DNA of 64,000 nt from NCBI RefSeq assembly GCF_050920415.1, contig NZ_CP169309.1; one strand, 5' to 3'. This stretch comes from Escherichia coli (GTDB taxonomy: Bacteria; Pseudomonadota; Gammaproteobacteria; Enterobacterales; Enterobacteriaceae). Under the pieces are notes generated by a model. That model was given only the letters and a program-made list of their open reading frames with translations. It was not told the origin of the DNA and ran no database searches. The translations under genes and the position numbers were made by a program. How positions within the stretch are numbered: the first letter of the stretch is position 1; every line of letters begins with the position of its first letter. Shown one piece after another: positions 5,113-5,536 of the stretch.

Positions 5113-5244
5113 ATGATTTACGCAATCGCGGGAGGCGCTCGCATGGGTGCCTTCCAACTAAATGAATCTTTACTTGAACGAATCACCCGTAAATTACGTG
5201 ACGGATGGAAAAGAGTTGAGGTCCTATTATGCGCAATGAAATAG
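5113..5244 (+). CDS. cIII: CIII-like protein (43 aa)
   Basis: ESLLERITRKLRDGWKR matches the lambda CIII core; below the ORF-track length cutoff. Confidence 0.8.
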   Translation: MIYAIAGGARMGAFQLNESLLERITRKLRDGWKRVEVLLCAMK

Positions 5245-5381
5245 CCATCAATCACCATATGCTTCGTGCTGCACAGAACAAAGCAGTAATAGCCAGATTT
5301 ATTGGTGATTCCAAAATGTGGCTTGAAGCAAATAAAGCGATGAAATCAGCTATCAACATTCCGTGGTATCGCAGGAAATGA
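5229..5381 (+). CDS. kil: Kil-like small protein (50 aa), overlapping the cIII stop
   Basis: ARFIGDSKMWLEA resembles the lambda Kil central motif as I recall it; lambda-like position after cIII. Confidence 0.5.
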   Translation: MRNEIAINHHMLRAAQNKAVIARFIGDSKMWLEANKAMKSAINIPWYRRK

Positions 5382-5536
5382 GTTTTACAGATAACTGGTC
5401 AGACGAAGAATTCATTCGTCAGATGAAAGAATTAATCGGTAACGAAGGAGATATTCATGTCACTTGCAACCACCGTGAAGGAGAGCAAGTTACAGAGACG
5501 CATGTACACGCAGAAAGCTCTCTGGTATCGCCATAA
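5378..5536 (+). CDS. Small hypothetical protein (52 aa), start overlaps kil stop (ATGA)
   Basis: Translational coupling geometry; no homology recognised. Confidence 0.35.
   Translation: MSFTDNWSDEEFIRQMKELIGNEGDIHVTCNHREGEQVTETHVHAESSLVSP

Follow-up and report, generated by a model that had tools for sequence, protein, structure and literature searches.

The segment between positions 5113 and 5627 of the window, a 64,000-nucleotide stretch of an Escherichia coli genome, is very probably the cIII-kil segment of the early-left (pL) operon of an Sf6-like lambdoid prophage, with four small genes (cIII, kil, orf52 and orf56) packed on the + strand. Window positions 5050-5700 share 99.2% nucleotide identity with Shigella phage Sf6. 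The four-gene stack is already known: it is deposited for Sf6, where the ORFs are annotated as genes 32, 31, 30 and 29, for CUS-3, whose record annotates the same four ORFs, and for many other phages. Of 5426 complete E. coli genomes, 2180 contain stack-matching DNA, and the RefSeq records inspected name the first two products ‘protease FtsH-inhibitory lysogeny factor CIII’ and ‘host cell division inhibitory peptide Kil’.

An earlier note on this DNA had described three overlapping short genes: cIII at 5113-5244, a kil-like ORF starting at 5229, and a third ORF starting on the ATGA at 5378. These placements are correct to the base, but a fourth overlapping ORF, at 5457-5627, had been overlooked. 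The genes were said to be invisible to the ORF track, and they do fall below its length cutoff, but that cutoff is the sole reason; they are annotated in Sf6 and in RefSeq. The implied novelty does not hold: the Sf6 genes are deposited, RefSeq routinely supplies the names cIII and kil, and the same architecture occurs in lambda and P22. The finding is ordinary because these genes have long been annotated in Sf6-like phage and their arrangement is also that of lambda and P22. The features discussed below are collected in Table 1.

Table 1. Features assigned along the early-left operon and its flanks, in window coordinates.
Feature	Position	Strand	Basis and remarks
Candidate pL promoter (TTGACC-17-TATCTT)	1656..1684	+	Consensus scan, 9/12 matches; alone not above chance
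nutL-like site	1731..1771	+	boxA-like GCTCTTTAA, then boxB-like hairpin (TCCCGC-CGAAAT-GCGGGA); read from sequence
N-like antiterminator gene, arginine-rich N-terminus	1879..2184	+	Same operon, upstream of stack
tL2A-type intrinsic terminator	2766..2794	+	Terminator scan; upstream of gene-33 homologue; Sf6 tL2A at homologous position
IS3-family insertion sequence, 1310 bp	2891..4200	-	orfA 3820-4146, orfB 2933-3820, frameshift pseudoknot
Sf6 gene-33 homologue, 3' part (coiled-coil protein)	4201..5088	+	IS separates it from the 5'-most ~80 nt of the gene
cIII homologue (43 aa; Sf6 gene 32)	5113..5244	+	ATG 5113, TAG 5244; Pfam, PHROG
kil homologue (50 aa; Sf6 gene 31)	5229..5381	+	ATG 5229, TGA 5381; starts 16 nt inside cIII
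orf52 (52 aa; Sf6 gene 30, HK97 gp42.1-like)	5378..5536	+	ATG 5378, TAA 5536; ATG overlaps kil TGA
orf56 (56 aa; Sf6 gene 29, HK97 gp42-like)	5457..5627	+	Overlaps orf52 by 80 nt, +1 frame
Rad52/Rad22-family single-strand annealing protein gene (Sf6 gene 28 homologue)	5636..6343	+	Pfam Rad52_Rad22 E 2.2e-25; phrog_1097 E 1e-129
Phage SSB gene (Sf6 gene 27 homologue)	6344..6817	+	Pfam SSB E 1.7e-38

By themselves short ORFs are no evidence of genes: 66 of them, each of 20 aa or more, overlap positions 4000-7000. The stack nevertheless exceeds chance, as confirmed by several measures. Four + strand ATG-initiated ORFs of at least 43 aa lie within 5000-5999, compared with 0.85 +/- 0.85 in shuffled sequence; each of the four is matched along its entire length by a PHROG family, and two match Pfam models (below). 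Substitutions in the non-overlapping parts, pooled over 60 distinct related loci, are distributed 16/9/40 among the three codon positions, an excess at third positions (p 5e-6). The geometry is equally constant, the ATGA junction (5378-5381) being retained in 80 of 80 related loci and the cIII stop lying 16 nt into kil in 79 of them. Judged by the similar overlaps found in lambda and P22, the architecture is ancestral and conserved. The overlaps, of 16 nt (cIII/kil), 4 nt (kil/orf52) and 80 nt (orf52/orf56), place each start codon and its Shine-Dalgarno sequence within the preceding gene, which may be read as operon compaction with probable translational coupling.

Other signals in the region were few. 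Rfam models gave nothing over 4900-5800, even at E <= 1, none of the four small proteins matched NCBIfam, and the antisense ORFs at 5017-5157, 5121-5258, 5255-5359 and 5569-5721 had no PHROG matches. A 25-aa + strand ORF at 5162-5239, which matches the 89-aa ‘Kil’ family phrog_2461, was rejected as a gene and read as an alternative frame of conserved cIII DNA; the match itself may be explained by over-long Kil gene calls that capture this DNA.

The identity of the first gene, which the earlier note had recognized from a core motif, is borne out by Pfam Lambda_CIII (PF02061; 56 bits against a cutoff of 25.7, E 4e-15) and by phrog_550 (E 1.6e-20). Over 35 aa the encoded protein shares 69% identity with lambda CIII, and over 39 aa 72% with P22 C3. 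Lambda residues 14-37 form the 24-residue amphipathic-helix region, including R32, that is both essential and sufficient for activity (PMC1838920); window residues 16-39 (LNESLLERITRKLRDGWKRVEVLL) are identical to it at 18 of 24 positions and keep the R32 equivalent. The C-terminal tail is short and of the HK022 type (...LLCAMK), and is coded by the kil start region. A Shine-Dalgarno sequence, AAGGA (5101-5105), lies 7 nt upstream of the ATG, and folding of the translation-initiation region yields a hairpin at ~5130-5156 (z -2.5), which might correspond to one of the alternative mRNA structures of lambda cIII. The gene is located in the pL operon, 3' of N and adjoining kil, in the order cI, N, (IS), gene 33, cIII, kil, and this position downstream of N and beside kil is common to Sf6, lambda and P22. 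CIII inhibits the FtsH protease competitively, and by stabilising CII it promotes lysogeny (PMC1838920). By analogy with these characterised homologues, we infer that the window gene encodes a lambda-class FtsH inhibitor and lysogeny factor, a 43-aa amphipathic-helix peptide that would competitively inhibit host FtsH, stabilise CII and thereby favour lysogeny.

The kil-like assignment proved equally sound, the second ORF matching Pfam Lambda_Kil (PF06301) over all 31 model positions (1-31; 71.4 bits against a cutoff of 27.6, E 4e-20) and phrog_2055 over residues 1-50 of 50 (E 7e-35). Identity with lambda Kil is 54.5% over 33 aa, corresponding to the helix-turn-helix core, which in lambda comprises residues 4-38 and is needed for activity (PMC11762379). 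An AlphaFold2 (AF2) model, built on a shallow alignment of 8 sequences, predicts a helix at residues 2-25, a turn at G26-D27 and a helix at 28-41 (mean pLDDT 81, rising to 89-96 at residues 11-40); the predicted structure is thus a helix-turn-helix with its turn at the conserved G-D, as in lambda Kil (PMC11762379). The gene has its own Shine-Dalgarno sequence (GAGG, 5218-5221, 7 nt upstream of the ATG), and its variable sites fall 6/1/13 by codon position (p 0.004). The C-terminus, ...PWYRRK, is basic but differs from the polar/basic RSK or RSSK present in nearly all lambda Kil homologues, a feature whose importance is hypothesised only (PMC11762379). Kil-type peptides block FtsZ ring assembly in a ZipA-dependent manner (PMC3961180, PMC11762379), and the earlier note had named FtsZ as their target; a search of the literature returned no test of the phrog_2055 subfamily (50 aa, C-terminal YRRK). 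From its characterised homologues, the window kil is presumed to encode a lambda-type division inhibitor, a 50-aa helix-turn-helix peptide that would transiently stop cell division by disrupting FtsZ rings, in lambda with the help of ZipA.

These assignments bear on the proposal that cIII, kil and orf52 form a hidden and noteworthy three-gene ‘host-takeover module’. The Kil homology is solid and Kil peptides do inhibit FtsZ (PMC3961180, PMC11762379), overproduced CIII is bacteriostatic through its inhibition of FtsH (PMC1838920), and the genes are adjacent and overlapping. The Kil-type block of FtsZ is the part of the proposal that stands; CIII is a lysogeny factor and not one of host takeover (PMC1838920), and orf52 has no link to takeover and sits in the position occupied by arf in P22. 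As the stack contains four genes rather than three, and nothing about it is hidden, being annotated in Sf6, in other phage records and in RefSeq genomes, we regard the proposal as quite unlikely.

The third and fourth genes have boundaries identical to those of Sf6 genes 30 and 29 and keep the same overlapping arrangement after kil. Orf52 is small and acidic (net charge -8) and matches phrog_2123 over residues 1-52 of 52 (E 3.6e-41); orf56, likewise small but basic (net charge +6), ends in an invariant ...PF and matches phrog_1723 over profile positions 3-58 of 58 (E 9.4e-36). The word ‘recombinase’ attached to these two PHROG families is an annotation label. Pfam models matched neither of these proteins, nor their homologues in the P22-type phage BIS08P22, and a literature search on HK97 gp42 and gp42.1 found no functional work. 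Of the four ribosome-binding sites, that of orf56 (AAGGAG, 5445-5450, 6 nt upstream of the ATG) is the best. Its variable sites beyond the overlap fall 8/6/20 (p 0.006), and a homologue of 35% identity occurs in BIS08P22 with the overlapping arrangement kept. Its AF2 model is a helical hairpin (helices 7-27 and 30-51, pLDDT 91), for which Foldseek searches of BFVD and PDB returned generic helical hairpins only, none at E <= 0.001.

For orf52 an alternative must be weighed, namely that it is a run-on frame at a mosaic junction encoding no functional protein, with its first ~50 nt conserved as part of the kil module and the remainder running on into any DNA that comes next, and serving at most to couple ribosomes from kil into the next gene. 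Conservation across variants of 52, 56 and 35 aa is limited to a common N-terminus of 16-17 residues (MSFTDNWSDEEFIRQM); in 17 loci homology ends at window ~5427-5431, after codon 17, and the C-terminal parts that follow are unrelated among variants. Variable sites outside the overlap (2/2/7, p 0.10) are not significant alone, and those within it favour third positions of orf56 (5/3/7 in the orf56 frame against 7/5/3 in that of orf52). The run-on alternative also draws on the lack of a match in Pfam or NCBIfam, on an AGGA just 1 nt from the ATG, on annotation by PGAP only in some cases, and on the many natural fusions that join other genes at the segment coding for WSDEEFI. Yet the ATGA start is present in all 80 loci and is followed by an ORF of at least 35 aa in 79 of them, and three of the four variants compared remain strongly acidic past the motif, although the 44-aa BIS08P22 homologue does not. 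Moreover, the N-terminal motif is found in BIS08P22, there 3' of a non-kil gene, and a similar one in P22 Arf, whose neighbouring kil is unrelated, so that linkage to kil does not explain the conservation. A run-on frame thus seems to us rather unlikely, and orf52 is retained here as a gene.

Many proteins of ~82 aa that fuse orf52 to orf56 exist in databases, one also at a related locus (L037), and programmed frameshifting between the two genes was considered for this reason. It was rejected: no two cases change frame at a common position, and most of the changes are confined to one contig, a pattern expected of random indels or misassembly in DNA that is open in both frames.

What orf52 and orf56 might do is suggested chiefly by their surroundings. 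Immediately after the stack, 8 nt past the orf56 stop, comes a gene for a Rad52-like protein; at other loci the gene 3' of the pair is Rad52-like, Erf or AAA_24/Sak4-like, and a RecT-family gene lies downstream at loci in which the 35-aa orf52 variant is accompanied by a different ORF, of 103 aa. The acidic and the basic protein are always encoded just 5' of the annealing recombinase gene, in the slot of P22 arf, and are most likely accessory factors of the recombination module, a role that is speculative. The pair is shuffled among unrelated recombinase families, which argues against a role as a partner-specific cofactor.

A more specific version, which we consider possible but doubtful, makes orf52 a divergent member or analogue of P22 Arf that stimulates the adjacent annealing protein, with orf56 as its partner. 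Arf is described as a stimulator of Erf recombination whose mechanism is unknown (PMC12315714; also the P22 record). Both orf52 and arf occupy the slot between kil and the gene for an annealing protein, with overlapping starts, and wherever the gene 3' of the pair was readable, it encodes an annealing recombinase (Rad52-like, Erf, RecT or Sak4-like). Both products are small and strongly acidic (52 aa and net charge -8 for orf52, 47 aa and -11 for Arf), WSDEEFI in orf52 resembles FSDEEFI in Arf, orf52 matches the PHROG Arf family at E 0.037, and an 88%-identical protein is called ‘accessory recombination function protein’ by one public source (P0017). On the other side, Pfam Phage_Arf (PF17585), which scores P22 Arf at 121 bits, matches neither orf52 nor its 44-aa relative at E <= 1, the likeness is confined to ~7 residues of low-complexity acidic sequence, and the synteny could be mere lambdoid gene order. 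Since hhalign of orf52 against Arf family alignments gave a probability of only 12% over 16 columns, orf52 was not filed as a member of the Arf family.

Broader still is the reading that orf52 and orf56 form a portable two-protein accessory unit of phage annealing modules, bridging or modulating SSB, host SSB-interacting proteins and the downstream annealing protein. In such a unit the flexible ...PF-COOH of orf56 would resemble the C-terminal tip of SSB (...DIPF), and the N-terminal (W/F)SDEEFI of orf52 would be the element common to P22 Arf. We consider a portable unit of this kind very unlikely; if true, it would supply a mechanism for Arf function and extend it across lambdoid phages.

Whether the stack is expressed depends on what lies upstream. 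The operon context comprises cro(-), cI, N, the nutL-like site and a tL2A-like terminator, followed by the stack itself, the Rad52-like gene and ssb. The candidate pL is placed between a repressor-side terminator (1449-1468) and N, like the pL of lambda and P22, and the nutL-like site is assigned as such from its position between this promoter and N. The N-like gene is homologous to N-region DNA of Sf6 and of an E. coli prophage, and to the ‘putative regulatory protein N’ of phage N7. By analogy with characterised homologues, expression of the stack would be N-dependent: after loss of repressor it would be transcribed from pL, N/nutL antitermination carrying polymerase past tL2A-type terminators.

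In the window copy, however, an IS3-family element, unnoticed in the earlier note, interrupts the operon. It is flanked by a 3-bp ATC target duplication, is bounded by terminal inverted repeats (TGAACCGCCCCGGG...), and contains the Rfam ALIL pseudoknot (3749-3865, 122 bits). In Sf6, CUS-3 and an E. coli prophage the two flanks adjoin each other directly; in alignment with the Sf6 locus (L001), window positions 2673-2889 correspond to 1437-1653 and 4200-7627 to 1651-5081, with gene 33 at 1571-2539. An insertion at the same place is absent from the complete E. coli genomes searched, and the clean duplication suggests that it is recent. Since the element lies between N and the stack, expression would depend on antiterminated polymerase crossing the IS, and its level may be lowered.

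The stack could accordingly be a silent relic of a decaying prophage, with a polar IS and none of the four genes expressed, a reading to which we give some weight but less than even. The element, inserted in the gene-33 homologue, separates N from cIII and is oriented opposite to them, a promoter scan between IS and cIII found no convincing internal promoter, and the insertion is common to no complete E. coli genome. Against this, the four ORFs, their start codons and their Shine-Dalgarno sequences are intact and 98-100% identical to those of functional phages, the target duplication points to a recent event, and N and a nutL-like site are present. In lambda, N-antiterminated polymerase passes IS-borne and Rho-dependent terminators. 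The insertion in this pL operon may offer a natural test of N-dependent read-through.

As a discovery the stack has little value, cIII and kil being textbook lambda genes and the whole already deposited and widespread in E. coli. Its residual value lies in orf52 and orf56, members of the HK97 gp42.1 and gp42 families, which are widespread, conserved, located beside recombinase genes and inconsistently annotated in RefSeq. As a length cutoff hides well-known phage microgenes, small ORFs of prophage early operons should first be screened against Pfam, PHROGs and reference phages.

Among known systems, Sf6 (AF547987) is the closest: ORF boundaries and overlaps are identical, and the stack has the same flanks, gene 33 upstream and genes 28 (Rad52-like), 27 (ssb) and 26 downstream. 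The window copy differs in the IS3-family element ~80 nt into gene 33, in one residue of orf52 (98.1% identity), in its N/immunity region and in the location of the prophage, at the ybhC (att-lambda) side of the chromosome. P22 likewise has four consecutive overlapping genes in the same pL slot (c3/kil 20 nt, kil/arf 11 nt, arf/erf 4 nt), the third of them, arf, encoding a small acidic protein that has the SDEEFI motif in common with orf52; in contrast to the window, its Kil (62 aa) has no sequence relationship to that of the lambda type, it has no orf56 homologue, and its recombinase is Erf rather than Rad52-like.

Lambda shares the gene order and the stacked overlaps (cIII/kil 32 nt, kil/gam 46 nt) as well as the CIII core, and both window proteins pass Pfam models built on lambda proteins. 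Unlike lambda CIII, of 54 aa, the window protein has 43 aa and another tail after GWKR; the window Kil has 50 aa and ends in YRRK, compared with 47 aa ending in RSSKSIH, and kil is followed by orf52/orf56, the Rad52-like gene and ssb instead of gam-bet-exo. The HK022-class CIII of HK022, HK97 and H-19B (PMC1838920) has the ...LCAMK tail in common with the window protein, and its gene likewise overlaps the same kil allele by 16 nt; a cIII of that class lies upstream of the window-type kil in 56 of the 80 related loci. The core of the window protein (ESLLERITRKLRDGWKR) is nonetheless lambda-class, so that the window CIII is a mosaic, in which a lambda-class core is joined to an HK022-type kil junction.

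The genes cIII, kil, orf52 and orf56 form an overlapping stack in the pL operon of a lambdoid prophage. The earlier note placed the cIII boundaries exactly and was right about a kil-like ORF overlapping the end of cIII by 16 nt and a third ORF, orf52, whose start shares the ATGA at 5378-5381 with the kil stop. Its count of three genes overlooked orf56, which lies in the +1 frame relative to orf52 and shares 80 nt with it; only 8 nt separate the orf56 stop from the large gene that follows. The Shine-Dalgarno spacing of orf52 is short (see table), which suggests, from the sequence, that it is translated via termination-reinitiation at the ATGA.

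Features of the pL operon region, in window order along the + strand
Feature	Position	Strand	Codons, stop	Ribosome-binding site
cro-like gene	64-309	-
cI/C2-like repressor	370-1107
98-aa ORF + terminator	1148-1468
pL-like site	1656-1684
nutL-like boxA + hairpin	1731-1771
N-like gene	1879-2184
156-aa ORF	2193-2663
tL2A-type terminator	2766-2794
gene-33 homologue, 5' stub	about 2807-2890
IS3-family element	2891-4200	-
orfB of element	2933-3820	-
ALIL frameshift pseudoknot match	3749-3865
orfA of element	3820-4146	-
gene-33 homologue, remainder	4201-5088
four-gene stack	5113-5627	+
cIII	5113-5244	+	43, TAG	AAGGA, 7 nt before ATG
kil	5229-5381	+	50, TGA	GAGG, 7 nt before ATG
orf52	5378-5536	+	52	AGGA, 1 nt before ATG
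orf56	5457-5627	+	56	AAGGAG, 6 nt before ATG
Rad52-like gene	5636-6343
ssb	6344-6817

Chance alone produces many short ORFs, and 66 with 20 aa or more overlap 4000-7000. Nevertheless, + strand ATG-ORFs of at least 43 aa in 1 kb number four, against 0.85 +/- 0.85 in shuffles; all four small ORFs show strong homology to known families; and variable sites, counted across 60 distinct related loci, fall mainly on third codon positions (first/second/third 6/1/13 in kil; outside the overlap, 2/2/7 in orf52 and 8/6/20 in orf56; 16/9/40 pooled, p 5e-6). Given this shuffle excess, homology and codon-position pattern, the four ORFs are beyond chance. Within the 80-nt overlap, variation lies on the third positions of orf56 (5/3/7) and not of orf52 (7/5/3), in small numbers.

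The operon is split between N and cIII by a 1310-bp IS3-family element (terminal repeats TGAACCGCCCCGGG..., 3-bp ATC target duplication), inserted ~80 nt into the homologue of Sf6 gene 33 and lying, in opposite orientation, between the promoter and N on one side and the stack on the other. None of the complete E. coli genomes of our collection carries the same insertion, and no convincing internal promoter was found downstream of it. In lambda, RNA polymerase antiterminated by N can read through such insertions, so induction may still bring about expression of the stack.

The earlier note named cIII and kil correctly, and both proteins score above the Pfam cutoffs (Lambda_CIII, 56 bits vs 25.7; Lambda_Kil, 71.4 bits vs 27.6). 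CIII matches the essential and sufficient region of lambda CIII (residues 14-37) at 18 of 24 residues, and retains the arginine equivalent to R32, whose replacement by alanine is dominant-negative in lambda (PMC1838920). By homology, it would inhibit FtsH competitively, stabilise CII and favour lysogeny, and hence be a regulator of the lysis-lysogeny decision rather than an agent of host takeover; the label 'host-takeover module' is only partly apt. After GWKR, the protein ends in VEVLLCAMK, unlike lambda's tail but matching that of the HK022-class CIII, which precedes the same kil allele in 56 of 80 related loci (22 loci have a lambda-type core). Since this HK022-type tail is encoded by the ribosome-binding and start region of kil, a mosaic joint lies at the cIII/kil overlap. 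A stable hairpin, GGAGGCGCUCGCAUGGGUGCCUUCC, is present at 5130-5156, just within the cIII coding region (fold z-score -2.5 for 5085-5175). Translation of lambda cIII is controlled by RNase III and alternative structures, and the hairpin might be related to control of this type. A 25-aa + strand ORF in the third frame across cIII (5162-5239) matches phrog_2461, a 'Kil' family of 89 aa (profile positions 14-34, E 1.5e-5), but was rejected as a gene. The match probably reflects conserved cIII DNA translated in an alternative frame, since the Kil ORFs of some phage records are over-long and run through cIII out of frame.

Kil is 54.5% identical to lambda Kil across 33 residues and unrelated to the P22 protein called "Kil". 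Its AlphaFold2 model (pLDDT 81; helix 2-25, turn at invariant G26-D27, helix 28-41) reproduces in prediction the helix-turn-helix core that lambda Kil requires for activity (PMC11762379), while its basic C-terminus, YRRK, is not the RSK/RSSK motif highlighted in that study. Lambda Kil and the Kil-like peptide of its close relative HK629 block division through ZipA-dependent disruption of the FtsZ ring (PMC3961180, PMC11762379), and we infer that this Kil would do the same.

Neither orf52 nor orf56 matches a Pfam or NCBIfam family; each matches full-length a family (phrog_2123 and phrog_1723, respectively) putatively annotated as "recombinase". The basic orf56 product (+6 net charge) is modelled with high confidence (pLDDT 91) as a helical hairpin. 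Its conserved C-terminus, EVLNQRYFLGPCPF, closes with an invariant PF, kept also by the 38%-identical homologue of Salmonella phage BIS08P22 (...NPDELPF). This ...PF-COOH end, on a flexible tail (5622-5627; GPCPF in the window), bears a resemblance, and no more than that, to the SSB C-terminal tip (...NFDDSDIPF in the adjacent phage SSB, 6803-6817). The two genes stay paired and overlapping at 33-35% identity. BIS08P22, a P22-type phage, has another microgene stack (L085, 873-1477), made up of a 56-aa gene resembling cIII, a gene of 54 aa that is related to neither Kil type, an unannotated 44-aa orf52 homologue following this non-kil gene, and an overlapping 62-aa orf56 homologue; a Sak4-like ATPase comes next.

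The acidic orf52 product (net charge -8) is conserved only in its first 16-17 residues, MSFTDNWSDEEFIRQM, and the family is mosaic beyond: forms of 52 and 56 aa are followed by orf56, and a 35-aa form by a different, 103-aa ORF. Two relatives (P0001, P0024) carry two or three in-frame tandem copies of the heptapeptide EFIRQMK, precisely where the mosaic joint follows the conserved N-terminal motif, and in other database proteins lambda N, a cIII or unrelated N-termini are fused to orf52 at the WSDEEFI-coding segment; that both fall there suggests a recombination or deletion hotspot. Many database proteins of ~82 aa join the N-terminal part of orf52 to the C-terminal part of orf56 (related viral locus L037; P0007, P0015, P0018, P0025, P0030, P0039, P0046, P0049) by a one-base frame change within 5457-5536. 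Programmed frameshifting was rejected: the point of change differs in each and most are known from one contig apiece (36 for P0030), so the fusions look like indels or assembly errors in a region open in both frames.

In loci whose fetched flank took in the downstream gene, an annealing recombinase follows the orf52/orf56 pair within ~10 nt, its family varying (Rad52-like, Erf or AAA_24/Sak4-like); in the one readable locus, a RecT-family gene follows the 35-aa form and its 103-aa ORF. P22 arf occupies the same slot as orf52, its product (MQHEFSDEEFIALIS...) also has an SDEEFI motif, and an orf52 relative is called "accessory recombination function protein" in one public source. Membership of orf52 in the Arf family is not established, because Pfam Phage_Arf does not match it and hhalign gave 12% probability over 16 columns; the mechanism of P22 Arf itself is still undescribed (PMC12315714). 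Our best guess, a tentative one, is an accessory role for the pair in the recombination module. The main alternative for orf52 is that the frame merely runs on across a mosaic joint or serves for coupling.

Elsewhere in the window, the integrase and excisionase end of the prophage abuts ybhC/ybhJ (~10500-15500), the gal-bio (att-lambda) region of the E. coli/Shigella chromosome, and the remainder is chromosomal. A tRNA cluster (37980-40201, - strand; five tRNA-Lys UUU, two tRNA-Val UAC, interspersed RtT repeats), adjoined by the CpoB/ybgF RNA thermometer, is the ordinary lysT-operon context of E. coli/Shigella.

Besides 353 phage records, the module matches DNA in 2180 of 5426 complete E. coli genomes; in 461 of these the match spans 80% or more of the module. 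The RefSeq records inspected name "protease FtsH-inhibitory lysogeny factor CIII" and "host cell division inhibitory peptide Kil", and some annotate orf52; orf56 is unannotated in the single record examined in detail. Over window 5050-5700, identity to Shigella phage Sf6 is 99.2%. The annotation deposited for that phage lists these four ORFs with identical boundaries (genes 32, cIII-like; 31, kil-like; 30, HK97 gp42.1-like; and 29, HK97 gp42-like). Gene 33 lies upstream of them, and downstream come 28 (recombination protein), 27 (SSB) and 26. The four are likewise annotated in phage CUS-3. The stack holds nothing new, being a textbook lambdoid arrangement already deposited for Sf6. Among 80 related viral contigs, the ATGA junction is kept in all and the cIII stop 16 nt into kil in 79. 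Other phages share the stacked-overlap design: lambda overlaps cIII/kil by 32 nt and kil/gam by 46 nt, and P22 c3/kil by 20 nt, kil/arf by 11 nt and arf/erf by 4 nt.
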